IMG/VR virus record: IMGVR_UViG_3300013426_000001
Coordinates: 74,524-138,523 of that record
Reading direction: 5' to 3' (one strand)
Source: a virus
Taxonomy: Duplodnaviria; Caudoviricetes
DNA length: 64,000 nt
A program made the position numbers and the translations under genes. Of the stretch, positions 4,065 through 64,000 are shown piece after piece. Within the stretch, counting starts at the first letter, position 1; every line of letters begins with the position of its first letter. Under the pieces are notes generated by a model. That model made no database searches, had not been told where the DNA came from, and saw nothing but the letters and a program-made list of their open reading frames with translations.

Positions 4065-4952
4065 ATGGGTGGCGGTAGTTGGACTACGAGTTCGTATACG
4101 TCTTATACGAAAACAAAAGGAATTAAAACTTCATGCTTAGCTGACGGAACCGTTACTCTTGACGCTTCTTACGATGCTCAAGATCTTTATACAGCGAGAA
4201 AACTTGATGAAGCACTTGATCCGAGGGGTGTTGTCAGAGAATGCGTAGATAGCGAGGAACACCCGAATACTATTCCTGTAATTCTTGCTCTTGACGTTAC
4301 TGGAAGTATGGGGAGCGCCCTCGAAGAAGTTTCAAAAAAACTTAACGCTATTATGACTGAAACATACAAGAAAGTAAAGGATGTTGAATTTCTTGTGATG
4401 GGTATTGGAGACCTTGCGTATGATAACGCGCCCATTCAGGCTTCTCAGTTTGAATCTGATATCAGAATAGTAGAACAACTTGATAAAGTTTATTTTGAAC
4501 GTGGCGGCGGCGGCAATAAATACGAGTCTTATACGGCTGCTTGGTATTTCGCCGTTAACCAAACGAAACTGGATGCTTGGAAACGCGGCAAGAAGGGTAT
4601 TTTAATTACTCTCGGAGATGAACCTCTTAACCCGTATTTGCCTAAAGAAGCTCTCAAAAGAGTGACTGGCAACGAAACGTTACAAGGGGACGTTGAAACA
4701 AAAGAATTGTATGACGAAGTAATCAAAAAATACGACGTTTATCATTTTGCGATTGATGACAACCACACTTGTTATAGATATTATAAAAATGACATCAAAG
4801 AAACTTGGGGAAAGTATCTTGACGATAATCACCTCAAAGTCGTTACTTTGAACGAACTTGCGGCGCAAATTGTAAACGCTATTACAGAATCTTCCGATTC
4901 CGCTATTGGCGGAACAGGAGTTTGCACTTCTACTGATGGGATTTCTTGGTAA
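4065..4952 (+). CDS. von Willebrand factor A (vWA) domain protein
   Basis: MIDAS motif ILALDVTGSM, EGGGG-like ERGGGGNxYESY, ITLGDE. Confidence 0.85.
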   Translation: MGGGSWTTSSYTSYTKTKGIKTSCLADGTVTLDASYDAQDLYTARKLDEALDPRGVVRECVDSEEHPNTIPVILALDVTGSMGSALEEVSKKLNAIMTETYKKVKDVEFLVMGIGDLAYDNAPIQASQFESDIRIVEQLDKVYFERGGGGNKYESYTAAWYFAVNQTKLDAWKRGKKGILITLGDEPLNPYLPKEALKRVTGNETLQGDVETKELYDEVIKKYDVYHFAIDDNHTCYRYYKNDIKETWGKYLDDNHLKVVTLNELAAQIVNAITESSDSAIGGTGVCTSTDGISW

Positions 4953-4957
4953 AATTT

Positions 4958-6142
4958 ATGAACGTTAAAATTGTAATAGGATCTAATTATGGAGACGAAG
5001 GGAAAGGGTTAACTTCTCGTTACTTTGCCCAAAAAGCCGAAGGAAGTTGCTTAACCGTTTTACATAATGGGGGAGCACAAAGAGGGCATACCGTTGATTA
5101 TTCGGAAGATAAGAGATTTGTATACCATCATCTCGCTTGTGGAACTGCTGATGGGAGTGATACTTATTTTGAGCAAAACTTCATAATTAATCCTATTCTT
5201 TTTAACAGAGAGGTTGAAGAGCTTGAAAAAATAAACATTCGCAATTACAGCGTATTTATTTCGCCTCGTTGCAGAGTGACAACCCCATACGATATGATAC
5301 TCAATCAAATGGTTGAACGGACACGGGGTGGTCAAAAACACGGTTCTTGCGGAGTTGGTATCTTTGAAACTATAAAGAGATATGAAAGTTCTGAATATAA
5401 TAAAACCTTTTCCGAGATGAAGAATATGACCGATTTGGAATTATTTAGATATATCGAAGAAATTTCTAGGGCATATTTATTCAGTAAAATCGAAGAATAC
5501 AAAATTCCGAGAAATATTTCTGATGATTATTTGCCGTCAATTACTTCTCGTAAATTTTTGACCGATTATATTATAGATTTTCGCTTGATGGCATCTGAAA
5601 TAACGGAGATAGAACCGTGGGATTTGTACGGGAATTATGATACTCTTATATTTGAAGGGGCGCAGGGGCTCGCTTTGGATATGGACAACAAAGAAAATTT
5701 CCCTTATTTGACGCCAAGCAAAACAGGTTGTTACAACCCGCGAAATTCTCTTGAAGAATATGGGAAAATTCCTTTTAATATTGAGTTATGTTACATTACA
5801 AGAACCTATCTTACTCGACACGGAGCGGGTCCTTTTCCCTCGGAATGTAAAAAAGAAGAAATTAACGAGCGGATCGAGGACAAAACGAACGTTCCTAATC
5901 CATATCAAGATAGTATAAGATATGGGAAGTTCGATATAACGGCGTTTTTAAATAGAATTAAGTCAGACGAAATTACTTTCCCCTATCATCACATCTCTAC
6001 GTGTTTTATTACACATAATAATTATGTGGATGTTGAGGGTTCTGAGGTCGAAGAGCAGCTCGCGCCGAACTTTCATTTTTTATATTTTTCAGGTGATAAG
6101 TTCGGTGAAAAAATAAAAACGAAGAGAGGAGAGAGAAAATGA
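4958..6142 (+). CDS. divergent adenylosuccinate synthetase-family protein
   Basis: GDEGKG, GGAQRGHTV, HGSCGVG, FEGAQG, TRHGAGPFPSE. Confidence 0.88.
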   Translation: MNVKIVIGSNYGDEGKGLTSRYFAQKAEGSCLTVLHNGGAQRGHTVDYSEDKRFVYHHLACGTADGSDTYFEQNFIINPILFNREVEELEKINIRNYSVFISPRCRVTTPYDMILNQMVERTRGGQKHGSCGVGIFETIKRYESSEYNKTFSEMKNMTDLELFRYIEEISRAYLFSKIEEYKIPRNISDDYLPSITSRKFLTDYIIDFRLMASEITEIEPWDLYGNYDTLIFEGAQGLALDMDNKENFPYLTPSKTGCYNPRNSLEEYGKIPFNIELCYITRTYLTRHGAGPFPSECKKEEINERIEDKTNVPNPYQDSIRYGKFDITAFLNRIKSDEITFPYHHISTCFITHNNYVDVEGSEVEEQLAPNFHFLYFSGDKFGEKIKTKRGERK

Positions 6143-21562: not shown

Positions 21563-21718
21563 TTATGCCGCACGTACTTTCACGCGGCGGGGAAGACGAA
21601 GAGAAAGCGGAGCTTGAGAAGTGCGCAAACGGAGTAGGTCGTGTGCGCAAGTCATTACTCATCAAGGCAATTACTTTGGTTAGGCGCAAGATTGCTACGT
21701 TTTTGCGAGGAGGTTTAT

Positions 21719-22828
21719 ATGAAACTTAATAAAGCATTTAAATTTAGATTATTGCCAAATCAAAATCAAATAGATCTCCTTGGAAAAACTTTTGGTTGTT
21801 GTAGATCTATTTATAATAAAATGCTTGAAGATAAAATCAAATATTATGAAGAGACAAAAAAGAATTTATCTGTAACTCCAGCACAATATAAACAAGAATT
21901 TGAGTGGTTAAAAGAAGTTGATTCTTATTCTTTGTGTAATGAACAGATGAATTTACAAACTGCTTTCAATAATTTCTTTAGAAACCCAAAAGTTGGCTTC
22001 CCAAAATTCAAAAGCAAAAAGAGTGACAAAAGCAGTTATACAACAAGCAATGTTAGTAATATAATTAGAGTTAACGATAAGCACCAAATTCATCTATGTA
22101 AACTTGGTTGGGTTAAATTTGTAGAACATCGAAAAATTCCAACTGATTACAAAATTAAATCAGTAACAATTACCAAAACTCCATCGGGGAAATATTATAT
22201 TTCAATTTTAACCGAATATGAATATGAAATCTCCAAAAGAGTTTTAGATAAAAACAAATCTCTTGGATTAGATTACAGCTCTCATGACTTTTATGTCGAT
22301 AACCAAGGCAGAAATCCAGAGCATTTACATCATTATTACAGAGATTTGCAAAACAAACTTGCTTTTCACCAAAGAAAACTTTCGCATATGGTTAAGGATA
22401 GCAACAATTATGCTAAACAGAAAATAGTTATTGCTCGAATACACGAAAAGATTTCTAATCAGAGAAAAGATTTCGTAGAAAAAGAATCGACGAAACTCGC
22501 AGACTTATACGACGTTATCTGCCTCGAAAATATTGATTTGTCAAATATTGCTCAATCGTTAAAACTCGGTAAAAGCACGTTAGATAATGCCTTCGGGACG
22601 TTCAGAAATAGATTAGAGCAAAAGATGATATTGCAAGGGAAATTGGTCGCCAAAATAGATAAGTGGTTTCCCTCAAGCAAACTTTGCAGATTTTGTGGTT
22701 GCATTAACAAAGATTTGAAATTGTCCGACAGGGTTTGGAAATGTGAATGCGGTAAAACTCTTAACAGAGATGAAAATGCTGCGATAAATATTCTTAACAA
22801 AGGATTAAAGCAATTGACAATAGCATAA
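21719..22828 (+). mobile_element. tnpB: full-length TnpB (IS200/IS605), no tnpA
   Basis: KAFKFRLLP HTH, GLD, CLENIDL, CRFC/CECG Zn finger, RDENAAINI; RuvC D-E-D intact. Confidence 0.95.
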
Positions 22829-28510: not shown

Positions 28511-30492
28511 ATGGAAATCGAAGTAACATACAAAGTTAAAGTGAGCGACCGAATCATCGGTTGTTTAATGCAGGACAGCGACCATCCTGACAGGAAAAGC
28601 GTGATGGAATACCTGAAACAATGTCAAGTCGACTTGATAGAAGATGTCTACGACCACGGCGACGAATTAGAAATCGTAAGCGTTGAAGCGAAAAGCATCG
28701 AGGAGGAAGAGAAGTGAAAATTCTGAAGAAAATATTCGTGACGTTTTTAGCGATAATTTTACTCCCATTTTATCTTTTATCGGTAATGGGGATGGTTGTT
28801 TTGGGAGCGTTTATCGGCGTTTATCTCGCATTCGTAAAATCGATAACTCTCATTAAGAGCGCGTGGGACGGAACGTTCAAGTGGAAAGACTTATTAGGAG
28901 ATTTGGAAGATGGCAAATTTTGATAAATATGACAGCGCGTTTGATTACGCAATAGATAAAGCGGCAGAAGAAAGAGAAAAACTTAAAGAAACCCAAAGAC
29001 TTCAAATCGATTATGACGTAATGAAGAATCTTGTTTATATCAACGGTGTTGAATGCACCCCGAAATCTTTTTTCGCTTTTACGGCAAATCTCGTTCAGTT
29101 ATACTGCGAGACGATTTATGCAGTTGAAACACGTTCGTTCGCGATTACTACGACGAGTAAAGAAATACCCGACGGAAGGAATCTCGTAAATCACCTTAAA
29201 TTTTACACTTATCTCGACGGTGGTGTAAGAGTGATCGGAGAATTCACCAACGAAATCAGTGATACGATAGAATTCGACAGAACGTTCAAAAACGGTTCGA
29301 TGATTGTTCATTATTTCGTTGAAAAGAGCGAGCAAATCGCAAGGAGCGCGGTTTTAGGATGATAAAAGATATGGTTTATTACATAGGATTCAGATATAAC
29401 AAACTTTACGTCGGAGAATTACCGATTGAAAAGGAAACGGATAAGTTATATTATCTCAATCGGATTTCCAACGTTTTAGGCGATGTAAGAATTCTTAAAA
29501 AGTCAGAAGAAAACATAATCAACGACAAAGCAAGTTGGACAACCGACGCTGCGATTTTCGATAAGCTCAAAAGAGCATTTGTACTCAGCCGTAAACAATC
29601 GCTTAAAGGCACGATAGCTGCCGACAAAGAAATGCTTCGCAGACTCATTAAAGATGCACGCGAACTTAAAATCAAAATATAGGAGAACCAAAATGAGATT
29701 TCTTAAAGAAGACACGATAGTTTTTGAAAAAGATAACTACACTGACGAATCCGCTCTTCAAACTGCAATTTCGGAAACGGTAAAACACTTAATGGAAAAC
29801 AATTACGCCGCACTCGTACATTGTGACGAACCCTCAATGGGGATTTACTGCGTTTCCTATGCATATGAATGGAATGCAGCAAACGAATTCGGGGACGACC
29901 GTTATATGCTCGTAACGGCAGACGAGGCGGAAGATTTGCTTGCTCAAAGAGAGGAGAAAGAGATAACTCATTCGGAGGACCGAAATGGCGGCATCGAATA
30001 AAAAAGAAGTGCTTGTTATGGTTTTGCGCCCGACGATTTTTAAAGTTGAAGCGAATGGCTTTGAAGATGCGAAAAAGACGATAATTAATCAGCTCGTCAC
30101 TTCGGGACAAATGAAGCCCAGCGACCCGATAGAATTCAGAGAGATGATCGATTATGAATTAAAAAGTGAAACAGAAGAAAATAAACAGAAGGAGAAAGAA
30201 GATGATAACGGCAGCGAAAGCGAAGATAATCACGGAACGACAGGAAGTTAAAGACAGAGCAAACCGAGTAATAGAGGCAATAGCAAAAGACATAGAGAAA
30301 CGTGCGACGATAGGTTGTAGAGAACTCGTGATTCGTATGGACGGGATAGGAAAATATTTCACGTTCAAGGAAAGGGTTTTCGGAGACGTAAGTCTTTTGT
30401 GGGAGGGAGTTCGCCCCTTAGTCGAGAAAAGATTCAGGGAAGCAAATTTCGCCATTAACGGTGGGCAATATGGATTTACCATTTCGTGGTAA
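28511..30492 (+). other. operon of seven small hypothetical ORFs (28511, 28714, 28910, 29359, 29693, 29985, 30202)
   Basis: promoter 28451; closely coupled ORFs with RBSs. Confidence 0.6.
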
Positions 30493-32650: not shown

Positions 32651-33490
32651 ATGTACAGACAAGGACTTACCTCAATCTCGGCACCCCCTGAGATTTACAA
32701 CCAAATATGCAAACAAATATCACAAAATGCAACAATCGAAAGTGAAATTACAGCCAAGCAAACCGTAATTTTCTCGACAGTTCGTCCAATAGGTTTCCTA
32801 TACAAGCAAATCGAAGGTAGAACTGCATTGCGTTTAGCCTTAAAGCAAATGATTTACGAGCGTATAGACGAAATAACAGGCGAAGTCAAATACTTCCTAA
32901 CGCTTGAAACAGGCTATCGTTTCGGTAAACCGCCAGTCTATGTTATCACAGACGATGCAGAGATATCCGCCGCCCGATACAGTGAATACCTTACGCTAAC
33001 GCCCTATAGCAGTTTCCAACGCAAAGAGACGACTTTTATCGATAAGGCGACAGGGCGCAAATACGTAATGAGTTACACATACGACGGGAGCATAATCACG
33101 TTCAATCAATTCTCAAAGAATGTAAACGAGAACTTCGATTTGCCAGAATATATAAAGTCGGTGATTTATGCAGACGGAGACAAGTGGGAGCAGAACTTCC
33201 ACGTAGTTCAAGCCAAATGGCGTGAGAAGCAAGAAGCGGACATAGCGGCGAAGAAAGCTGCGATTCAAGCGAAGAAAGACGCGGAGGCGGAGGAGCGCAA
33301 GCGCAAAGCAGCCGAGAAAAAGAAGGCTCAGGCGGCGGCTAAGAAGGCGAAGCCTTTATCAAAAACGACAAGGAAGATTACAGAAAGTGATAAACCCAAA
33401 CCAAAGACTTCCAAGCCTGTTCCAGAGAAAAAGAAGAAAGAGGAGACTGTAACAGACATGTGGAGCAATTGGAGTAAAGGTAAAAAATAG
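32651..33490 (+). CDS. hypothetical protein with Lys/Ala-rich basic tail
   Basis: 279-aa ORF, GAGG RBS. Confidence 0.65.
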   Translation: MYRQGLTSISAPPEIYNQICKQISQNATIESEITAKQTVIFSTVRPIGFLYKQIEGRTALRLALKQMIYERIDEITGEVKYFLTLETGYRFGKPPVYVITDDAEISAARYSEYLTLTPYSSFQRKETTFIDKATGRKYVMSYTYDGSIITFNQFSKNVNENFDLPEYIKSVIYADGDKWEQNFHVVQAKWREKQEADIAAKKAAIQAKKDAEAEERKRKAAEKKKAQAAAKKAKPLSKTTRKITESDKPKPKTSKPVPEKKKKEETVTDMWSNWSKGKK

Positions 33491-33750
33491 AAATTCCATT
33501 CTTGATTAAAGCAAATCTTTGGGGCGGCGGAGCCGAGCCAACGCCCTTGGAGGGTGGGAGGGAACCTTGGGGCGGCACAAGGTGCCCTCTGAAAGCGAAG
33601 AATAAAAATCGAAATAATTCTAAGAAAGTCAATTAAAATGCTTGACAAAAGAAATTAATTATGGTATAATAAAAGCAGATAGTGGAGGAGTGGGTGACGG
33701 GTTTGTCCCGCCGCCCATAAAAACGTATTTCAAATGCACCACCTTTTTTT

Positions 33751-33892
33751 GCAAAATTGCAGGAATTATCGGAGATTTTGAGAAAATCTCGTCACTAAAA
33801 TTTCTATAAAGGTAAACCTAGACTCTTATTATAGAAAAAATAGTGATGAGTTTTTTCGAAAATCGCAGATTTTATCGGAGATTTTGAGAAAA
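33751..33892. repeat. direct repeats flanking a long inverted repeat (putative origin/operator)
   Basis: TTATCGGAGATTTTGAGAAAA at 33766 and 33872; CTCGTCACTA..TTTCTATAA / TTATAGAAA..TAGTGATGAG. Confidence 0.75.
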
Positions 33893-33918
33893 AAGTAGGG
33901 TTTTTTAAGGAGAAAACT

Positions 33919-35271
33919 ATGGAAGCAAACGAGCGAAGCGAGTTAATACAGTTTCAGGGAAACAGCGATGAGAAATCAAAATGTGAAATAAAATTCACAT
34001 TAGCGGAAGAGAAAAGAAGGAAAGAAGAAGAGAAACAAAAACAAGATGAGATAAGAGATAAACTTATTAAAAGAAGATTGCGTAAGACGAAAATCAAAGA
34101 CAACTTATTTTCGTATGAAGAGCTGTGTGATATATTCTGTTCCGAACCAACAAGAAGCATGGATAGTCGTAAAAGTCAATTCAAAGACTGGGAAAGATTT
34201 TGCGACATTGAAAAGGTAGATCGGAAGTACCATTTGTCGAACATTAAAAAAGACCCGCCGCCAGATTTGCATAAATCAGAAGTGAAACAGCATATCGCAA
34301 ACGTCTTGTATTTGTATATGTATTTGCATCCCGATTCCAAAAGAGAAGACGGGAGAATTACTTTATCGAGAAGAGAGCTTTATTGGATACTCGGATACGT
34401 GAATTCTAATTATTTTGGAAACAATGAAGAATTGAAATATATCAAAGACAACTACCCGACAATTTGGACAGAGTATAACGCGAAGCTTATCGGATATATG
34501 AACGCGCAAATTGCATCGGCTTTTTCGACGTTAAGAAATAAAAGAATAATCGACGAATTAGACGGATACCAGTTTTGGTTAGAGGGTAAAGAAGGTTGGA
34601 TAGCAGTAAACGACGATACCGATTCAGATAAGATAGCGCAATTGTTATCTTGCGAGAAGATGGTTTTAGAACAAATGGCGGCGGAAAATTATAATGAGCA
34701 GTTAAAGAAATGGAACGAATGTGAAAGCCCGAATAAGGGGCAATGGAAGCCCGAACGCAGAACGTTCGATATGGGGTATATCTTCGCAACAGGGCAGTAC
34801 GAGATTTTTAAAAGAAGAACTTGCGAATTGTATAAAAAACATTTTAAGCTTGCATTACGAGATTATCGAAGAGTGTATAAAGTTTATGTGCTGAGGCATT
34901 ATCTCGGAGAACAACTCAAAGAGAATTTAGGAGAAGAATTTGTAAAAGACGCGCAGAAATTATTTAAAGAGGAACAGATTAAAATAAACCAAAAAACAAC
35001 AGTCAAAAATTTGGAATCTAAACACAGGTTGGCGGCGGAACGAGAAAATATGAATGAACTTCAACTCAAAATCTTAGATAACGAGAGCGGGTTTAGAAAA
35101 GTCACGGTTTTTAAAAGAGAGCAGAGAAAATACGACGAGGTTTTGAATAAATGCCCCGAAGCACTTTTACAGATCGGAACAGAAAAAGAAAAGATAATTA
35201 CCGATAAATATATCGAGATTTTTAAAGATATCACAGAGAAGCTCATTAAAATATATCCTACGAAGTTATGA
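33919..35271 (+). CDS. large basic protein, putative replication initiator/DNA-binding
   Basis: 450 aa, helical and basic, own promoter 33642, repeats upstream; function inferred from context only. Confidence 0.45.
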   Translation: MEANERSELIQFQGNSDEKSKCEIKFTLAEEKRRKEEEKQKQDEIRDKLIKRRLRKTKIKDNLFSYEELCDIFCSEPTRSMDSRKSQFKDWERFCDIEKVDRKYHLSNIKKDPPPDLHKSEVKQHIANVLYLYMYLHPDSKREDGRITLSRRELYWILGYVNSNYFGNNEELKYIKDNYPTIWTEYNAKLIGYMNAQIASAFSTLRNKRIIDELDGYQFWLEGKEGWIAVNDDTDSDKIAQLLSCEKMVLEQMAAENYNEQLKKWNECESPNKGQWKPERRTFDMGYIFATGQYEIFKRRTCELYKKHFKLALRDYRRVYKVYVLRHYLGEQLKENLGEEFVKDAQKLFKEEQIKINQKTTVKNLESKHRLAAERENMNELQLKILDNESGFRKVTVFKREQRKYDEVLNKCPEALLQIGTEKEKIITDKYIEIFKDITEKLIKIYPTKL

Positions 35272-35280
35272 GGCGGAGAT

Positions 35281-35874
35281 ATGGAAGAAGAAATAAAATT
35301 TTATTTACACATTAAAAAGCAATTTTTCCCCAAAAACAAAAATATTGAAAATGAATATGGGATATTTTCAATTGACAAAGCTTTTACGTGGGATAATTGG
35401 CTGAACAAATTTACAAAAAGCAGTATAAATATCTTAAAGGGATATTTTAAAACAATAAAACAAGATGTGTATTACGTTGTCACGGGATATTTAAAAGCCG
35501 ATGACGAACATAAATTAATTTTATTTGCAAATGAATGTTATGAAATTAAAGGGGTTACAACCCCTATAGAATATGTAACCAAAGAAAATTTGTGTTTACC
35601 TCAATTAGTGGGCAATAAAATGTGGAAAGGCTGTAAAACAAACAGAATAAGAGCCGAAGAAGACGCTAATTCAGGGGAACCAAGCAGGCAAAAGCAATTG
35701 CATAGAGAATACAACGATTTAAAAAGGCAAGCACGAGCCGAAGTCTATGCTGAACTTGGGATAAGAACTTATCTTGATATGCGACAAGTTTTGGAAGGTT
35801 GGGTTGAGGATAGATATAAACAAAAACTCAAAGAAGCAAGAGAAAAATCTAAAAACATCTCCTCAGACGCTTGA
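35281..35874 (+). CDS. hypothetical protein
   Basis: ORF with RBS. Confidence 0.55.
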   Translation: MEEEIKFYLHIKKQFFPKNKNIENEYGIFSIDKAFTWDNWLNKFTKSSINILKGYFKTIKQDVYYVVTGYLKADDEHKLILFANECYEIKGVTTPIEYVTKENLCLPQLVGNKMWKGCKTNRIRAEEDANSGEPSRQKQLHREYNDLKRQARAEVYAELGIRTYLDMRQVLEGWVEDRYKQKLKEAREKSKNISSDA

Positions 35875-35948
35875 CAAACACATTCAAAAGTGATATAATA
35901 GAAATATAAAAGTTAGCCGTTTCGAAATCGACACGGTAAGGAGGCCAA

Positions 35949-36497
35949 ATGAAAACATACGACCGCGAATTTGAACTCGGCTTTTCAGTATCCGCCGCCC
36001 GAGCGATAAATACAATACTCCGTGAAAAACTTATCGTAATCCATCAAGACATCATCCATCAGACCTGGCTTGAAGAAGGCGAGGTCGGCGATTACAAATT
36101 CCGCACGCGAATCCGCAGAACCGAAGTCGCTCGACCCGATATGAACGGTTCGTGGGCTGGAAAATGCGAATTCACGACTAAGTATTCAAAGAGCGATGAA
36201 ACGGCAGCGAAGCAAGATAATATGGAGCTTAACGCCGAAATCCTGCCCGAAGAGTACGAGAAATTGAAGAAAATCTACAAGGCGGCGGACAAGGAAGAAG
36301 TAACGAAAATCAGGACCTATTTCAGAGAGCCGCTTGATGCGTTCACAATCTACACGCTCGATACTTATCCGAACGAAGAAGATGACAGAGCGCGCATCGA
36401 GATTGAGTTTAGTACGCCCGAAGAAATGAAACGCTGGAAGGCGCCTGGCTGGCTTAAAGAACTTATCGGGAAGAAATATAGCGGGCAAAAGGCTTAA
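35949..36497 (+). CDS. CYTH (triphosphate tunnel) domain protein
   Basis: N-terminal REFELGF, RIRR, KIRTYF, IEIEF. Confidence 0.7.
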   Translation: MKTYDREFELGFSVSAARAINTILREKLIVIHQDIIHQTWLEEGEVGDYKFRTRIRRTEVARPDMNGSWAGKCEFTTKYSKSDETAAKQDNMELNAEILPEEYEKLKKIYKAADKEEVTKIRTYFREPLDAFTIYTLDTYPNEEDDRARIEIEFSTPEEMKRWKAPGWLKELIGKKYSGQKA

Positions 36498-36517
36498 CCG
36501 CCGCCCAAAGGAATTAT

Positions 36518-36790
36518 ATGGCAAAAAAGAAACCAGACCAACTTTGTTGGGATTGCAAACGAGCTGTTAATTGCGAACCCTTGACTTGCCCATGGGCAGC
36601 GTTGGGAAAACCAGTCGACGGTTGGGAAGCAGAGAAATCAGAATTTAACGATTGGGAAGGCAACTCAAAAATTAAGGTGCAAACGTACACTATAACTAAA
36701 TGTCCTCTTTTCATTCAGGATCGAACCGAAACTGCAAGTGTAGCTAAACTGTGGGAGGGCACGGGTAAAATTTGGTGGATGCTCGATTAA
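36518..36790 (+). CDS. Cys-rich protein, paralog 1
   Basis: LCWDC..CPWA..GKPVDGWEA..CPLFIQD. Confidence 0.7.
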   Translation: MAKKKPDQLCWDCKRAVNCEPLTCPWAALGKPVDGWEAEKSEFNDWEGNSKIKVQTYTITKCPLFIQDRTETASVAKLWEGTGKIWWMLD

Positions 36791-36818
36791 AATAAATCGC
36801 ACATCAAAAGGAATAATT

Positions 36819-37268
36819 ATGGAAAGTAAACCGATTAAACTAACTAAGAGCAATGGGCGCAAGAAATATAACATCTACGCTGACACACTCTGCTGGAACT
36901 GTAAACGATGCACCAACCCCGATTCTTATCCTTGCTCGTGGGCGGAAAGTGGCAAACCTATCGAAGGCTGGACCGCCGCCGAAGGAAGAGAATTCTTTCA
37001 CTATCTCCCGACGGGCGAAAAGGTAAGTATGGGGTTCTCCTACGTGGTAACAGATTGTCCGCTGTTCATCCAAGACAAACCGTTTTCCACCTACGCAGAG
37101 GGGTGCGCATGGGTCGCCGACGCTCTTAACGTCGATATCAGTACCGTCGTCAATAAGCCAAGGCAATACTTCCGCAAATACGAGGAAATTTATGGCAAAA
37201 AGCTTCCGTATTGGCTCATGAATCATAGCGAGGAGAAGACATTTTTTCCAAATAATCCGAACAATTAA
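36819..37268 (+). CDS. Cys-rich protein, paralog 2
   Basis: LCWNC..CSWA..GKPIEGWTA..CPLFIQD. Confidence 0.7.
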   Translation: MESKPIKLTKSNGRKKYNIYADTLCWNCKRCTNPDSYPCSWAESGKPIEGWTAAEGREFFHYLPTGEKVSMGFSYVVTDCPLFIQDKPFSTYAEGCAWVADALNVDISTVVNKPRQYFRKYEEIYGKKLPYWLMNHSEEKTFFPNNPNN

Positions 37269-37372
37269 AATTTTTCAAAAAGTGCATAAAAACACTTGAC
37301 AAATCTATAAAGAAGTGGTATAATGTATTCGTGAACTAAAGATGATATTCGATATCGTCAAAGGAGAACTAT

Positions 37373-37609
37373 ATGAAATATTACAGTGAAAGACTCAATC
37401 GTTTATATGACACCGAAGAGGAACTTTTTAGAGCGGAACGTATCTTAGATGGTGTCTGCGGGCAAAAAGAAAAAACTGCCCGCCGCCCGAATCACGATGA
37501 TTTTTCTCGTCCCGCCACTACATCTTCCAAGATTAACAGCAATCATTCAAGCACTGATGATACTGCTTTTAGAGCAGCGATTATACTTTTGTTGCTGAAT
37601 TATTTTTAA
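37373..37609 (+). CDS. hypothetical protein
   Basis: MKYYSERLNRLYDTEEEL; promoter 37296. Confidence 0.6.
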   Translation: MKYYSERLNRLYDTEEELFRAERILDGVCGQKEKTARRPNHDDFSRPATTSSKINSNHSSTDDTAFRAAIILLLLNYF

Positions 37610-37741
37610 GCTCACACCAGGCGGCGGGAAAAGAAATTAAGTCCATTTGACTATCACCTCACTATGTAAGCAAAAAGAATTAAGCAAAACAGACAGAGAG
37701 AAATAATCATCCATTTTGCAAGAACCTCCTACCGCCGCCTC

Positions 37742-37777
37742 GAAACCCTGATCGAAAGATTGGGGTTTCTTTTTTTT
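37742..37777 (+). terminator. intrinsic terminator
   Basis: GAAACCCTGATC-GAAA-GATTGGGGTTTC then T-run. Confidence 0.85.
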
Positions 37778-37789
37778 ATCCAAAATCAC

Positions 37790-38232
37790 TTGACAAATAT
37801 TATTCGAGAAAACGACGTAATTTGTATTGAAGATTTGCAAGTGAAAAATATGGTCAAAAACCATAAACTCGCGCAAGCAATTAGCGACGTTTCTTGGTCG
37901 GAGTTTGTTCGGGAATTAGAATATAAGGCGCGTTGGTATGGAAGATTAGTTATTAAAGTCGATAAGTTTTTCCCGAGTTCTCAAACTTGCAGTGTCTGCG
38001 GCTACAAGAATGAAGGGACAAAAGACTTAAAAGTTAGAGAATGGGATTGCCCTGTTTGTCATACTCATCATGATAGGGATGTGAATGCGGCGATAAACAT
38101 TCTCAATGAAGGGCTTAAACAATTAGCCTAAACATAAACAACCGTCGGAACGACGGGGATAGCTTGGTAAATATTCTCGCAGTAGTCGGAAGTTCCCAAG
38201 AATCTCGCAGATTTAGTTGTGAGAGGTTCAAA
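37790..38232 (+). pseudogene. tnpB: 5'-truncated tnpB with intact omegaRNA/right end
   Basis: only ICIEDL, Zn finger and RDVNAAINI remain; scaffold ends GGTTCAA. Confidence 0.85.
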
Positions 38233-38545
38233 CGAGTATATACTCTTAGTAATCATAGTTCCGTACTTTTATTATACTCTTCTAGTATATATACTCTTAT
38301 ATCGGATATATTCTTTCAGAATATATCCTCTTAAACTATTCACTTCGTTCATAGTTTAGGTTTAATATTATTCTTTTATTTATTACTTATACTTAGCTTA
38401 ATACAAGTGAAGAGTATATATTACCAGTAAACTTAATATGAGTATATTTTAAATAATATATAATAATATATATAAGAGAAATATATAAAGAGAATATAAA
38501 TAATACATGAGTAATTGGTAACACTCTTTATATACTCCGTACTAG
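38233..38545. repeat. very AT-rich tract with TATACTCTT-type repeats
   Basis: repeats in both orientations; palindrome GAGTATATACTC. Confidence 0.6.
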
Positions 38546-38843
38546 TGATTAGAGAAAAGGGTAGACCAAACCATACGCGAAGTTCCGCACAAAAAAAAAG
38601 CGCCCGCCGCCAAAACAAAAAAATCCCTAAAATATTTTTTTTGAAAACCGCTGTCAAATACTTGACAATCTTCCCGCGTTGTGGTATAATACTTTTGCAA
38701 GCTGAAAGAGCGGTGTTGGATATCGGTTGTGCAAAGTTGTTGCCGCTCCCGCTTGCACCAGGTCTCAATATCCGCCGCCTTAAAACACAGCATTCCTTCG
38801 GCGGCGGGAGACCACCACTAAACAGATACTCTCGGAGGGAATT

Positions 38844-39191
38844 ATGAAACTTGAATCTTGCCGCAATCACACGGCTGACGAAATCGAAACTACAATCACC
38901 ATGCTCGGCAACGGCGCTGACGGCTTCCGCGTTTACACGACCAGCAATTCAATGCTTACGAAAATCGGGAAGTTCCTCGACACTCCTAATACTCCTTGGT
39001 CGATAGAAAAAATCGAACGCTACTCCGACGGAGTTCCCTCGGGTTACTTCTTCAGATGCTCGGTCAAGAACTGCTTACAGCTTAAGGCTAAAAAGGCGGC
39101 GGGCAGAGAGTTCACGGAAGAGGAAAAAGAAACAGCTCGCGAAAATATGAAAAAAGTCGCAGCTGAAAGATGGGGTAAAAATCAAATCTAA
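38844..39191 (+). CDS. hypothetical protein
   Basis: promoter 38662, GGAGG RBS. Confidence 0.6.
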   Translation: MKLESCRNHTADEIETTITMLGNGADGFRVYTTSNSMLTKIGKFLDTPNTPWSIEKIERYSDGVPSGYFFRCSVKNCLQLKAKKAAGREFTEEEKETARENMKKVAAERWGKNQI

Positions 39192-39342
39192 GGTTTTTTT
39201 ATAATAAGAATGTTATTATTCGGAAGACAATTCAAGGTCGGGTCGAACACTCGCCCGCCTCGAAGTCTTTTTGGGAAATTATAGGCAAATTCAATAGGCT
39301 CACACAGAAAGGCTTTTTGCTTTTCATATTTATACTCCTTCA

Positions 39343-39381
39343 GGCGGCGGTCCGTATAATTCGGGCTGCCGTTCTTTTTTT
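39343..39381 (+). terminator. intrinsic terminator ending the + block
   Basis: GGCGGCGGTCCG/CGGGCTGCCGTT then T-run. Confidence 0.75.
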
Positions 39382-39702
39382 ATAGACGCAGGGCAGTCGT
39401 CTGGAAAATAAGGGGGCGTTCATGGTGATCTGAAAATGGGGCGCTTACATGCAATTTGGGCGTCAGCCAAAAAAGGCGGCGGCGCTTTGTAAGAAAAAAT
39501 GCCCGCCCGCTTAAAGAAATATGCCCCGTGGGTTAAAAAATACCGCATAGTAAGGGCTGCTGGTCTTTATTTATACTGGCAGAGAGCAGTCCAGTTTTCG
39601 ATTATTCAACGGTTACTTCGAGAAACCCAAGTGCAGCTGCTGGAGCATCCGCGTTTTTAGAGCGGTGCGGATGAATGGCCGCTTAGTTGTTACGGGTTTG
39701 TG

Positions 39703-49578: not shown

Positions 49579-51120
49579 GCGTTTTTACGCGCTTTTTCCC
49601 TTTCGGGACGAGCGTAGTCGGGATTTTCCTTTCTACGCTCTTTGATTCTCTGTGCCGACTTAATCCTTAATTACGCCGTAAATGTCGTCGACGTAATAGC
49701 CTGCAAATATGTTGTAAATCGCGGTGCATTTCTTACCGTTATATTCAACGATAATGTCGTTATCTCCGTTGTATTGGAGAATTGTTACTTCGGCAAATTT
49801 GCCGCCGAGTGAGTGAATGTGTGCTTGTACTTTGTTCATAATTGAGCCTCCTAAAATTTTATTGCGATTATTCAAGCGATATCGCGAAACGCCGTTTTTC
49901 ATTCCTCGTCCTTTTCAGGCTTCGGTAATTGCTTGGGGTCGTGCGTCGAACCTTCGTTTTTGACTTTGAGCAGGTCTTTGTCTGCTTCCGTCATTTTGAG
50001 TTTTTCGACGCTCTTTTTCGTGTAATCTTTGAAGAAATTAGCCATTTTATACCTCCTTTGCTAACCTGTTCTTCACCGCTCTGTCGCGAATTTTTTCGAG
50101 TTCGATGCGGTCTCTGCTTGCCTTCACTTCTGATTTGAGTTCGTCGGTTAGTTCGACGTCAAAATCTTTGAGAAGTTTAAGCGTGTAAGTTTTGAGCATT
50201 TTCAATGTGATTTCCACTATTCGTCACCTCCTTTCGTCCAGAAGAACGATTTCTTTCCTTTGACGGCTCTTTCGTAATCGATAAGAACCGTCGCCCCAAC
50301 TATTGCCGTTGTCAAACAAACTACTGCGATAATTCCGAGTACCATCTTAATCACCTCCTTTAATGGCTTTCTTTAACGCCTGCGCTTCATCTTCCAATCC
50401 ATTCCTTTTGAGAACGCGATAAGCGCTCTCGTAATCGCCGAGTTCGACAAAAACGCTTGCGTCGTCTATCGCGAGTTCCTGTGAGTAGGCGACTACGCGT
50501 TTCGCTGCATTCGTGAGTAAACGCTGCACGACGCCTTTGCGGTCGTATTTGCGCGTTCGATGGATTTCGGTTACGACTTTCGTCGTTTTGCGAAGTTCTT
50601 CTGCTTCGAGCATTGTTGCCTTTGCTCTGTGCAACTGCGCGAGATAGCATTTATCTTCAATGCAGAAACCCGCCTTCGGGCAGATTGAGCAACTGCGTTC
50701 GAAGCGGTAATCCGCTTCTTTGAGTGTTTTGGCTTCGTCTTGCAGTTCGACTGCGCGAGCCATTGAAAAGTGAAATTTGTTATTCATGGTTATTTAATCT
50801 CCTTTACGTTTGTCCAGTTGTACGTCGCTGCTTTGCCTGTGCGCTTCGTAACCTTCCCGCATAAGTTCATGCAGTACTGATGTGCTTCATCTAAGCACTG
50901 CTGTTTGGTTTCGTGAAGAGAAGTCTCAAACTCCTCCTTCGAAATCGTTTTGTCGTCGATGATGACGTCAAAATTGACTTTGTAAAATTTCTTAATCATA
51001 GGATAACTCCTTTGCCGACAGCCGCTTCGAACGACCTGATTGTGTCGGCTTGAATACCGTTTCTCGATATCCCGACGCCCGAAGGCGTTTCGTCTTAATC
51101 TTCCAAGACTCATCAGGGGA

Positions 51121-59382: not shown

Positions 59383-59493
59383 ATTATAACACACTTCCCA
59401 GACCTTGTCAAGCATATCCGTAAAAATTATTTTAAAATTTTTTTATTTTTTTTTGCGTAAACGCTTGACAACTGCCAAAACCTATGTTATAAT
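59383..59493. promoter_or_regulatory. back-to-back divergent promoters
   Basis: - strand 59383-59411 and + strand 59465-59493, both TTGACA-17-TATAAT. Confidence 0.85.
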
Positions 59494-59499
59494 GCTCTC

Positions 59500-59880
59500 G
59501 AAACTGAATAGTTATCAGCGGACGCACCACCGCTTTAACAACAGGATTGCCGCAAATGTTGCCGCCACACACCGACATATTTTGCGTCAGAGGAGCGTGG
59601 ACACCAAACAAAACCTCAATAAAAAAGATGGTGGGCTTAGGAAGGCGAAGAAGAGAGCACCTACCTCGATAAAGACGTTATGGATTCGCGTGTAACGAGA
59701 GGTATGACGATGTGAAATCATTGTTTATATGTGTGTTATAGCAGAACGGAAACTCAAGCAGGGGAAGTTTGTGAAAAGGGTATAATGTCGTCCCGTTATC
59801 GCATGGGAGCATTATACCCAAAACACAGAACCATTTTTCTCGCAAAGGAAGGTTTGTGTTTCTGTTATTTCTTTTTTTTG
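59500..59880 (+). ncRNA. ~380-nt structured ncRNA candidate
   Basis: promoter to T-run with long hairpins, no convincing ORF. Confidence 0.55.
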
Positions 59881-60057
59881 TTTTTTATATAGTTTTTCAC
59901 ATTAATAGGTTTTGGGTATAATTAAGGGTGGTTTGGGTGGGTAAAGTGTTTTTAATTATTTTATAATATAAAAATATACATTTTTGTGAATATTTTATAC
60001 AATTTCAATTGACAATATGTATAACTTATGATATAATGAATTCGTAAGTTAAAAAAT

Positions 60058-61221: not shown

Positions 61222-62892
61222 ATGCCAGTTTTGCAAAATTTATACCAGATTTATAAATTACCGTCTGGTTTAATTGTAAAAAGTGATTTAAAGCTCGAAA
61301 ATTACACCCGAAAACGTGCAATTCAGGACGGAAACCTCGTAAGCGTCGGCGACAATATGGTTTTTTACAAAATCCGCGATTATTACGGCGATACAAGAAG
61401 TCATCAGGAGATTTTCGATACGGTCCAAAATCTGCGAACGACGCTTCGAATTTGCAAAAGAGAAGGAAAAATACTCGAAGGTCACATTGTGAATCAGCAA
61501 ATTCAAGACATCCTTTTTGTAAAAGATATAATTGTAGTTGTTTGCGAAAAGAAGTCCGAATATCTCAAAATCGGTATGAAAGGTTTTGAGGTGAACGGAA
61601 TTCGATATACGCGACTTTGTGCGGGTGCGGGAAACTTACGTCGAAACAGCGCGATTTACGTTAATGAAAAGCTTTACCCATATCTTTACGAAGCGTTTAT
61701 GTGCGGGCTTGCCGATAAACTTAAAGAAGCGGTTCTCCCGAAGTTGGGTGCATATTTTGCACTTTCCTTTTCGTCGGTTTTGTGGGTTAGAACACCGCGA
61801 GTTTGTGTAATTAAAGATTTCGAAACTACACTCCAAAATCAGAACGTTGATTTCATTTGCCGAAAAGAAGAGCTCGGCGAAGATCAAAAACCGCGAACGA
61901 AGCACTACATCGAAAAGCGTGTAATGGATTTAACTCTTAATAGCGCGGACGGGCAAGGTTTAGTAGACCCCGAATTCAGCAAGTTGTGGGCGGAAGATAT
62001 GCAACTCGATTACATTCCATCTTCGTTTGTTGTGAGAAGTTCGTTCGTAAAAGGAAATCTCGTCCCATTTGATTTTAAGGCTTATGCGACCGAACACGGA
62101 ATTGATAAAATTAAGGATAGATGGGGTGTTGAGTACCCATTGAATGAAATTGATGTTTTATTAAGTGAATCGCAGTTCAAAGAATACAAGGAATATTCCA
62201 GCTGGCAGGAGTATTTGTATTACTTCAACAAATATAAGCTTCGTTGGGGCGTGGCTCGCTACAATAAGAAGCACGACGACGAATATGTTTTGGCGAATTA
62301 CCAATATATTCAGGCGCTCAGTCTTTCGAAGGAAGATATCCACGGGTTGATACAGCCAACAATTGATTGGATAAAAGGCGTTTGCTCGGGTGACGACTTA
62401 TACAGTCTTTTGTTTATGTTTGGTGGGAAAAGCGAAGATGTGACTTACGAGCGAATGTATTCATCAGCGCAATCGACTTTTATGAAAGCGATTGTGAAAA
62501 ACAACGAAATGCTGAAAGATGCGCACGTTCAGCGGAAGATTTACAAGAATATCGTTGAATGTATAAATCGTGCAAAGATAGGAAAGATTTGGGTGAGAGG
62601 AAATTATCAGTTTATGATTTCCGACCCGATAGCACAGTGTCGATCGGCGTTGGGATTGCCTGTAAAAGGTGAAGTTCCAGCCGAACACGTTTGGTCGAAT
62701 TTTTGGAATGAGCGACGAATTGAGGGTTATGTTGACTGCTGTCGTTCGCCTATGATCGATGTTAGCGAGCATAACCCGTCGAAGTTATATAAAAGTGAAA
62801 CCACGGAAAAGTGGTATCAATATATAAAGAGTGGTTTGGTGTACAGTATATATGATGTTGCGACATTCAAGCACTCGGATTCTGATTTCGAT
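61222..62892 (+). CDS. YonO-like (RdRP-related) DNA-dependent RNA polymerase, exon 1
   Basis: ADGQG, VRSSFVKG, ANYQYIQ, CRSP, ends SDFD at intron. Confidence 0.8.
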
Positions 62893-64000
62893 AAACAATT
62901 GTCGAAGTAAAAAATGGTGAACCAACAGAGTTGGGTGTCGAAACAACGATAGGAACAATAGGAAATGATTGTTAGTGTTTCGGCTAACAGGGGAAGCCTT
63001 AACGTAAAGACGATGGTAATCCTGTGGTAATATCTTAAAATTCTAATAGAGCGTATAAAAATAAATAATAAGGAGGTGAGATGATTGCCTACATTTAAAG
63101 ACTTAACTGGAAAAATTTTTGGGAATGTTGAGATAAACAAATATCTTGGCGGAAGTAAATGGGAATGTACTTGTTTGAATTGTGGTAAAACTGTTATAAA
63201 GACAACTGTTCAGGCTAAACTCGGTGGCAAATGTGCTAATTGTTATAAGAATTCTATTAATGAAGATTATTTTTCTTCTATAAATACGCCTGATAAGGCT
63301 TACTATCTTGGTTTTTTATGGGCGGATGGATATTGTAGTATAAAACATCAAGTTTTAAAAATAGACCTTCAAGAAGAAGACAGAGAATTGTTAGAAAAAA
63401 TGAAGGCTGATTGGGATTATAGTGGAAACATTACTTTTTATACAGCGAAGCTTGGGAAAAGTTACCGTAGCAAAGAAAGTCAAGTGTTTAGAATTGCAAT
63501 AAAACCTATTAAGTTTATAGAAAAAGTTTACAAACTTGGTGTAACTCCACACAGAGAAAAAGCCTCTTTCCCATATGATAAAGTATCAGAAAAATATTAT
63601 AAAGATTTTATTAGAGGATATTTTGATGGAAATGGTAGTATTAGTGTTGATTGCGGCTGCGTAGATATATGTGGCGGTACTAAAATACTGCAAGACATCG
63701 GAGATATATTAATATCTAATGGGTTTAAGTGTAATTATCATTATCGTAGACCTGAAAATAAAGACAATATAATGTTATATGTTCGCGGTAAACGCGATGA
63801 ACGAAGAGAGTTTTTGGACTGGATATATAAGGACGCTCGTGTATATTTGGAAAGAAAATATAAAAAATATTTAGAATTTTAAGATAAACTCAAACGACTA
63901 TCCCTTGGCTTTAAGCAATAGGAGTAGGGCCGTTGCGAAACGGTGGGAGAAAACCCCTTAAATCGAAGTGCCATTCATAGATGATATAGTCTAAGCCCCT
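62893..64000 (+). mobile_element. group I intron (3' end outside window)
   Basis: P1 TTCGAT/GTCGAA with U-G at splice site, P3 AATGGTG/TGCCATT, P7 GACTA/TAGTC. Confidence 0.9.
63085..63882 (+). CDS. intron-encoded LAGLIDADG homing endonuclease
   Basis: YYLGFLWADG and FIRGYFDGNG; N-terminal DLTGKIFG..WECTCLNCG; AGGAGG-TTG. Confidence 0.9.
   Translation: MPTFKDLTGKIFGNVEINKYLGGSKWECTCLNCGKTVIKTTVQAKLGGKCANCYKNSINEDYFSSINTPDKAYYLGFLWADGYCSIKHQVLKIDLQEEDRELLEKMKADWDYSGNITFYTAKLGKSYRSKESQVFRIAIKPIKFIEKVYKLGVTPHREKASFPYDKVSEKYYKDFIRGYFDGNGSISVDCGCVDICGGTKILQDIGDILISNGFKCNYHYRRPENKDNIMLYVRGKRDERREFLDWIYKDARVYLERKYKKYLEF

Follow-up and report, generated by a model that had tools for sequence, protein, structure and literature searches.

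The stretch of DNA analyzed here, which we call the window (64,000 nucleotides, positions 74524-138523 of IMG/VR record IMGVR_UViG_3300013426_000001), belongs to the genome of an uncultured gut phage (Duplodnaviria; Caudoviricetes), assembled as a 138,523-bp contig that closes on itself by a 77-bp overlap. Close to the middle of the window lies a dense array of a single short word, an octamer reading CCGCCGCC or, on the opposite strand, GGCGGCGG. This octamer array is real, conserved and co-evolving, with a new candidate reader, a protein of 115 amino acids (p115) that is encoded close to its end. On balance, and by a modest preponderance of the evidence, we read the octamers as the sites of a phage-encoded, sequence-specific factor that co-evolves with them, most probably p115 acting as a dimer, which would make the array a regional repressor or roadblock system. 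Coordinates below are those of the window or, for relatives, of the locus named, except where genome positions are indicated.

A dense octamer array at a convergent gene junction

A pattern search located 20 octamers at 32967-39482, ten on each strand and irregularly spaced at 28-961 bp, and so reproduced every copy listed in a preliminary description of this DNA that had been made from the sequence alone, together with the 10:10 strand split and the outliers it had placed near 4503 and 20709. Outside the array, the window holds copies only at 4503/4506 and 20710, and dinucleotide-preserving shuffles of the 64-kb window contained a mean of 0.67 octamers and a maximum of three. Of 26 octamers in the whole 138,523-bp genome, 20 fall inside the array, i.e. 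within 4.7% of its length (binomial P = 4.9e-22). The three copies beyond the window, all of them GGCGGCGG, stand within 55 bp of one another in the tail or tape-measure region (genome positions 50595-50649), and are probably a Gly-rich coding repeat outside the array system. The core of the word is exactly 8 bp, in that a k-mer enrichment scan found each local CGCCGCC or CCGCCGC 7-mer to sit within an octamer, and the same scan found no other GC-rich word enriched at the array. Flanking bases are unconserved, with a weak T at position -3 in 63% of 134 unique sites. Twelve of the 20 copies are in open reading frames (ORFs) and the other eight in spacers; the ORF-borne octamers occupy three reading frames, where they mostly encode Ala-Ala, but also Pro-Pro-Pro and Arg-Arg.

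The array takes up the last 6.5 kb of a rightward gene block, which runs from about 59.5 kb in the window, across the contig junction, to 39.2 kb, and it reaches up to the junction with the convergent leftward block (39.9-59.4 kb). The maximum of the cumulative GC skew coincides with this convergent gene junction, at 36-40 kb. According to the preliminary description the array stops at a leftward early block; it does stop at this junction, but the boundary is that between convergent rightward and leftward genes, and not an early block as such. A literature search on CCGCCGCC in phage returned no relevant report, and near-identical DNA was not found in isolate phages.

Conservation of the array among related phages

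We compared the window with relatives from IMG/VR (G labels) and with loci in related contigs (L labels), Logan, ENA and metagenome-assembled genome (MAG) contigs being covered as well. Five IMG/VR relatives, with local proteins 45-95% identical to those of the window, carry an array at the syntenic locus, and the array holds 21 of the 24 genomic octamers in G003, 14/16 in G001, 17/19 in G004 and 19/23 in G005; the same clustering is repeated at the syntenic locus in at least nine further contigs. An even spread of the octamer, or a lack of clustering in relatives, had been named beforehand as what would speak against the array, and the genome-wide scan found clustering at the syntenic locus in all relatives. 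The limits of the array are constant too: it begins inside a gene for a 279-aa protein (32651-33490, + strand), ends at the strand switch, and is dense across the last 4-6.5 kb of the rightward block. Among SPbeta-like isolates, PMBT24, c-st and BUCT082 have no octamer cluster, and in the isolate MT835524 octamers are scattered, the examined part of that genome having a GC content of 52%.

Several sites are conserved in position, namely those at aa 106 and aa 227 of the 279-aa gene, those at aa 15 and aa 111 of a 182-aa gene (35949-36505, + strand), the octamer immediately past the stop codon of the latter, and two inverted octamers in the last gene's leader, while other octamers are lineage-specific and located in lineage-specific sequence. 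Codon alignments, a check proposed in the preliminary description, support constraint on the word itself: octamer bases are invariant at synonymous positions, and adjacent codons drift synonymously. Moreover, Ala-Ala pairs are written as GCGGCG or GCCGCC in 10 of 17 instances in the cluster genes, versus 42 of 209 elsewhere. By the evidence of these alignments, the octamer is selected as DNA.

Between the 279-aa and 182-aa genes lies a variable slot, a gene-replacement hot spot within the array, which is filled in the window by a 450-aa gene with three octamers (33919-35271, + strand), and in relatives by mutually unrelated genes of 423-466 aa (7171-8538 in L003, 7604-9004 in L004 and 1890-3161 in L009). 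Those of L003 and L004 contain no octamers; judging by their sequences, these site-free slot genes look like recent arrivals that have yet to gain them, which suggests that regional density is selected, and not individual positions alone. One of the slot genes has a weak helicase-like P-loop match.

Since the array abuts a leftward block of small genes, and the assembled contig ends inside it in two relatives, the octamers might also be thought to mark packaging or entry of the DNA, as a pac or terminal-repeat region or as a T5-like pause in ejection. The two contig breaks are at differing points, however, and complete contigs all self-close, as with arbitrary assembly breaks; structural and polymerase genes begin about 20 kb off, and known pac and cos sites are compact. 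We hold a packaging or entry signal to be among the least probable of the readings considered here.

Coordinated switching of the word between lineages

Different lineages use different words at the same locus. L030 carries 11 copies of CCGCCACC and five of CCGCCGCC in the same module, and its 279-aa protein is 94% identical to that of the window; four homologous sites are altered at one shared motif position, and two of these alterations change the protein (Ala to Thr and Ala to Val). L034 encodes a 279-aa protein that matches its counterpart in the CCGCCGCC genome L002 at about 90% identity, and it has ten copies of (T)CGCCGTCC, of which nine lie in the 1.9 kb around its p115 homologue. A metagenome scan with diverse p115 homologues returned 47 loci, among which the CGCCGTCC type was found again in L038 (9-10 copies of (T)CGCCGTCC in L034 and L038) and the CCGCCACC type in L039-L041 and L043 (20 copies in L040). 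Other loci carried CCGCT[CG]CC (L070 and L071, with 21 copies in L071), AGACACA (L072, L073 and L078, with 24 copies in L072), CCGTCCCT (six copies in L060) or CCCCCGCC (L084). Every word type is limited to a few kilobases around the p115 homologue. Variant arrays are split between the strands at 9:11 in L040, 10:11 in L071 and 13:11 in L072; the words of L060 and L084, which have 5-6 copies, are on one strand only. That AGACACA is among the types indicates that a private word matters and GC-richness does not. In the loci compared, homologous sites switch word together, even at a cost in amino acids.

This switching bears on whether the reader could be a host protein, or the words a mutational or mobile-element by-product. 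The region does contain mobile-element debris: in the window, a C-terminal fragment of TnpB (IS605 OrfB; 37760-38131, + strand), which is an insertion remnant whose 3' tail is structured, and in L004 an HNH gene. Yet near-identical phages (94% in the 279-aa gene) have different words at homologous sites, and each word would then need a different host with its own reader. The sites also keep their positions and their synonymous bases, and relatives that lack the TnpB fragment still have the array. We give a host reader or a by-product as little probability as a packaging signal. The absence of the fragment from array-bearing relatives also rules out a target site of TnpB or of an insertion sequence (IS), and a Chi-like or translocase-guiding site is disfavored by the 10:10 use of strands without a polarity switch.

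p115 as the candidate reader

The p115 gene lies at 38844-39191 (+ strand), with an octamer of its own at 39095, and its product has no known family; homologues are 110-118 aa in length. Although it was absent from the binding candidates of the preliminary description, p115 is the protein that co-varies with the word. No protein of the module is better conserved than p115 among the CCGCCGCC genomes of the window's clade (71-88% identity), and in variant-motif genomes it is at most 54% identical to that of any standard genome, while the genes on either side are 85-95% identical. Maximum-likelihood analysis of 32 p115 homologues gave a tree in which each supported terminal clade has one motif type. 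By these comparisons, it is the p115 clade, rather than the neighboring genes, that word type tracks.

The three binders that had been put forward earlier, all encoded inside the array, did not hold up. The 279-aa protein is ruled out as the reader by its 90-94% identity across genomes with different motifs, and the 450-aa protein by the unrelated genes that replace it in relatives keeping the array. Two paralogous Cys-rich proteins of 90 and 149 aa (36518-36790 and 36819-37268, together 36518-37268, + strand) vary by 45-50% among genomes that share a motif, and in L034 the gene is located beyond the array; in addition, distant members of their family have no octamers nearby, and the AlphaFold2 (AF2) model of the Cys-rich protein gave no fold match.

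A two-copy model of p115 reached an interface score (ipSAE) of 0.60, the best of three controls scoring 0.00, and among proteins of solved structure, 20 of 30 pairs and one of 23 single chains reached the mark set for a dimer. Contact agreement between dimer runs was at least 91%, with a partner pLDDT (predicted local distance difference test score) of at least 76, and the predicted interface is formed by the antiparallel pairing of residues 14-23 and of a Lys-rich segment, residues 76-84. From these models, p115 is predicted to form a dimer.

Regulatory layout around p115

Motif copies always surround the p115 promoter, which lies beside the genome's most AT-rich tract. The promoter itself (38662-38690, + strand) is of the perfect sigma-A type, TTGACA-17-TGnTATAAT. 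Upstream, 58 bp before the -35 box, stands an octamer (38604-38611, + strand) followed by A7 and T7 tracts, and an octamer at -56 to -58 from this box is also present in L003, L005 and L007. Downstream, the 5' leader of p115 contains an inverted pair (38772-38807) made up of CCGCCGCC, 20 nt and GGCGGCGG, which recurs with the same spacing in L003, L004, L005, L007 and L018, and at this leader position L034 carries its own word, likewise as an inverted pair. A motif copy lies within the spacer of the p115 promoter in L018 and L030, with an equivalent in L009, and inside the spacers of other perfect sigma-A promoters in L004, L005 and L009. The leader pair of L018 (3592-3627) reads CCGCCGCC ... 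GGTGGCGG, its pairing as RNA being kept by G-U wobble, and GGTGGCGG is also the CCGCCACC variant word. Besides being a DNA site, the leader pair could act as an RNA hairpin.

Four strong host-type promoters lie inside the array of the window, with several octamers just downstream of them. When 20 loci were pooled, 43 sites were found at +41 to +160 from the -35 box versus 16.9 expected, in genomes that are related and non-independent, and this enrichment falls in the first ~125 nt of transcription units. At the end of the rightward block, an octamer forms the 5' arm of a terminator-like hairpin (39343-39373, + strand).

The non-coding tract upstream of p115 is 300-450 bp long, and in the window (38160-38560) it includes the most AT-rich 200 bp of the genome (82% AT); the AT-richest part of the locus is likewise found just upstream of the p115 promoter in L001, L003, L005, L007, L009, L018 and L030. 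The tract of the window also holds several copies of the palindrome GAGTATATACTC plus variants. Heptamers of the form GAGTATA/TATACTC, of which 8 of 30 genomic copies are at 38234-39331, may be a second type of site for another factor.

An AT-rich tract inside the array, by the p115 promoter in the window and in seven relatives, is what might be expected of a replication origin or copy-control region, at which p115 would bind, the copies would act as iterons beside an unwinding tract, outlying copies would titrate or "handcuff" the protein, and the different specificities would correspond to incompatibility types. Sites flank the p115 gene on both sides in L034 and L040, resembling the incC-repA-incA arrangement of P1, and the covariation suits incompatibility as well as it suits immunity. 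The locus is nevertheless a point of convergence, by gene orientation and by the GC skew maximum, and not of divergence; DnaA boxes form no cluster, the 8-mers are dispersed over 6 kb of coding DNA where iterons are phased tandem repeats of 17-22 bp, and p115, for which no winged-helix match was found, falls far short of known iteron initiators in size. An origin at this locus thus appears unlikely.

The same convergence would be in keeping with a barrier zone, in which protein-bound copies halt forks, or a processive phage RNA polymerase, before the convergent leftward block, as the end of the array always coincides with the strand switch and the GC skew maximum. In the RTP-Ter system of Bacillus subtilis, a small dimer binds sites adjoining its own autoregulated gene, and p115 is small, predicted to be dimeric, and has an inverted pair of sites beside its own gene. 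The phage furthermore encodes an RNA polymerase of the YonO type, which has been described as highly processive (PMC5467207). Against this, fork traps have two opposed polar groups, whereas the octamers are of mixed orientation and essentially on one side of the junction, and p115, as far as its low-quality model allows, is without likeness to RTP or Tus in sequence or fold; a barrier strikes us as more doubtful than an origin.

A centromere or anchor, whether as a partition complex or as a tether that positions phage DNA (e.g. into the forespore), would explain many non-polar sites in one domain, and private specificities are known for partition sites. The sites, however, are dispersed and include no compact repeat block, and no ParA-, ParB- or tubulin-type gene came to light in the genome: no ParA-like match above the cut-off and no tubulin or ParB_N match was found in it, and a ParM model gave no signal in the genome nor in its controls. 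We place a centromere or anchor lower still, as quite improbable.

Interpretation of the array

Taken together, selection at the DNA level, regional density, private words and linkage to p115 establish, as far as comparison of genomes can, a protein-DNA recognition system that is under pressure to be private. The non-polar protein-binding domain proposed in the preliminary description finds support in the synonymous conservation, the gain of sites in unrelated genes and the concerted switching; the specific roles offered for it (centromere or anchor, packaging or terminal repeat, origin organizer, injection stop) are among the less probable readings above. Known examples of such pressure are immunity, with its repressor and operator, incompatibility, with Rep and iterons, and partition sites. 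An autoregulated repressor or roadblock is favored because copies overlap promoter cores and early transcribed regions, because no partition motor gene was found, and because the locus is one of convergence and not divergence. In such a system, a p115 dimer would bind every copy of the octamer and control its own promoter via the flanking or overlapping copies, the remaining copies would let p115 damp transcription of the module, as a repressor or a roadblock, and private specificity would avert cross-talk with related co-infecting phages.

A number of observations weigh against p115 as the reader, or against repression as its function. No Pfam, PHROG-function, PDB or fold match was obtained for p115 with what is a low-quality model (AF2 monomer, pLDDT 59), the best hit of the fold search having a Z of 4.9, within noise, and none a Z of 5 or more. 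CCGCCGCC is common to three p115 clades that are only ~40-50% identical, so that p115 distance is no simple predictor of the word, and near the p115 homologues of L035, L049, L053, L058 and L067 a repeated word is not evident. With variant-motif contigs as short as ~8-14 kb, a reader elsewhere in those genomes is possible. A symmetric dimer on an asymmetric 8-mer also needs explaining. About 75% of sites are far from any promoter, and the 10:10 use of strands is unlike that of known transcription-stopping operator arrays. Lastly, no serine recombinase was found in the genome, whose only tyrosine-recombinase-like gene (genome positions 29808-30305; 353-aa frame) sits amid tail-fiber genes.

We also see a distinct, if minority, possibility that p115 is the founding member of a new protein family, made up of small DNA readers that act as dimers and whose 7-9-bp specificity is easily re-tuned, and that together with its array it constitutes a new type of cis-acting "self-marking" domain in large gut phages, which is neither an operator set, an iteron origin nor a centromere. 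A domain of this kind might label a segment of the genome for silencing, positioning or protection, with private codes separating co-infecting relatives.

Comparison with known systems

By analogy, the closest known system is that of the stoperators of Cluster A mycobacteriophages. Stoperators are 13-bp sites in short intergenic gaps, and the immunity repressor of L5 (gp71) and Bxb1 is a monomeric helix-turn-helix protein. They are found genome-wide and predominantly in one orientation relative to transcription, with motifs that are similar, but not identical, between related phages and that track repressor distance (PMC6550527). They are reported to occur away from promoters as well, and to act on elongating polymerase (PMC9283540). 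Like stoperators, the octamers are many short asymmetric sites per genome (20 in the window and 9-24 in relatives), and their motif co-varies with a cognate candidate, p115, where the flanking genes do not. They differ in being gathered in 4.7% of the genome, with 12 of 20 sites in ORFs and both strands used equally, and p115, going by its low-quality model, has no recognizable family.

In SPbeta, about ten dispersed copies of the 15-bp SPBRE, in promoter regions across the prophage, are bound by MrpR, a protein with a tyrosine-recombinase fold (PMC10516654). The phage studied here resembles SPbeta as a large Firmicute phage with a YonO-type polymerase, but its 8-bp motif is mostly in ORFs, and its one tyrosine-recombinase-like gene is at 29.8 kb of the genome, among tail genes. 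SPbeta-like isolates, for their part, have neither an octamer cluster nor a p115 homologue.

Two further systems share other traits with the array. In iteron-controlled replicons such as the incC-repA-incA region of P1, an autoregulated gene is flanked by its own sites and accompanied by an AT-rich tract, and incompatibility is defined by private specificities; the iterons are ~19 bp long, tandem and phased, and Rep is a winged-helix protein of ~30 kDa. The octamers, too, adjoin an AT-rich tract, and motif copies flank the p115 gene, but these 8-mers are spread among genes over 6 kb at a point of convergence, 28-961 bp apart. The omega protein of pSM19035, a small dimer, uses a paired beta-ribbon to recognize a short asymmetric word whatever its orientation, and serves as autorepressor and centromere-binding protein alike; at three promoters its heptads, 7-10 copies per array, follow one another without gaps, and it has a ParA partner. 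In p115, by contrast, a ribbon-helix-helix signature could not be detected, and no ParA gene was found in the phage.

Other features of the region and the phage

The 279-aa protein in which the array starts has a Lys/Ala/Glu-rich tail that is histone H1-like, and one of the two octamers of its gene falls in the Ala runs of this tail. The Cys-rich proteins, present in 2-3 copies per genome, carry the pattern CWNCKR...CPW...CPLF and belong to a family that Pfam does not model, with 2,921 representatives at E below 1e-3; a C-terminal domain of three helices is modeled with confidence in the long form. No known RNA families were found at 30-42 kb of the window, and alternative genetic codes are unsupported.

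Genome-wide, 24 perfect TTGACA-17-TATAAT promoters are on the rightward strand (1647-38662 and 59465-60009 of the window) and two on the leftward. Nearly all of the rightward promoters have an extended -10 TG, with the spacer being 18 in a single case; over 60.6-113.2 kb of the genome, which is the last 53 kb of the rightward block, one is met about every 2 kb. A gene at 61222-62910 (+ strand) encodes a 562-aa homologue of the single-chain RNA polymerase YonO of SPbeta (N-terminal part), and its best isolate relatives, Enterocloster bolteae phages, Clostridium phage c-st and SPbeta-like Bacillus phages, place this phage among the YonO-bearing Firmicute phages. Further genes that were identified include helicases, a RecD-like protein, methyltransferases and an intact TnpB (395 aa; 21641-22828). 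The PurZ-type adenylosuccinate-synthetase-like family, which is that of 2-aminoadenine genomes, is matched strongly at 4946-6142 (PHROG, E 1.5e-57), and the DNA of this phage may be base-modified. The idea taken from this PurZ-like gene, that a GC-only word escapes base modification, is ruled out by the lineage that has AGACACA.

Significance

If p115 is the reader, it would have an uncharacterized DNA-binding fold with at least six natural specificities (CCGCCGCC, CCGCCACC, CGCCGTCC, CCGCTSCC, CCGTCCCT and AGACACA), and these would provide a natural series for learning its recognition code, as well as a source of orthogonal regulators. A shift in specificity that rewrites sites inside conserved genes, at a cost in amino acids, is a signature of immunity-like or incompatibility-like diversification. 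The array thus brings to light a private protein-DNA system in a clade of abundant, uncultured SPbeta-like gut phages of ~125-150 kb, and offers a handle on how such phages regulate or maintain themselves.

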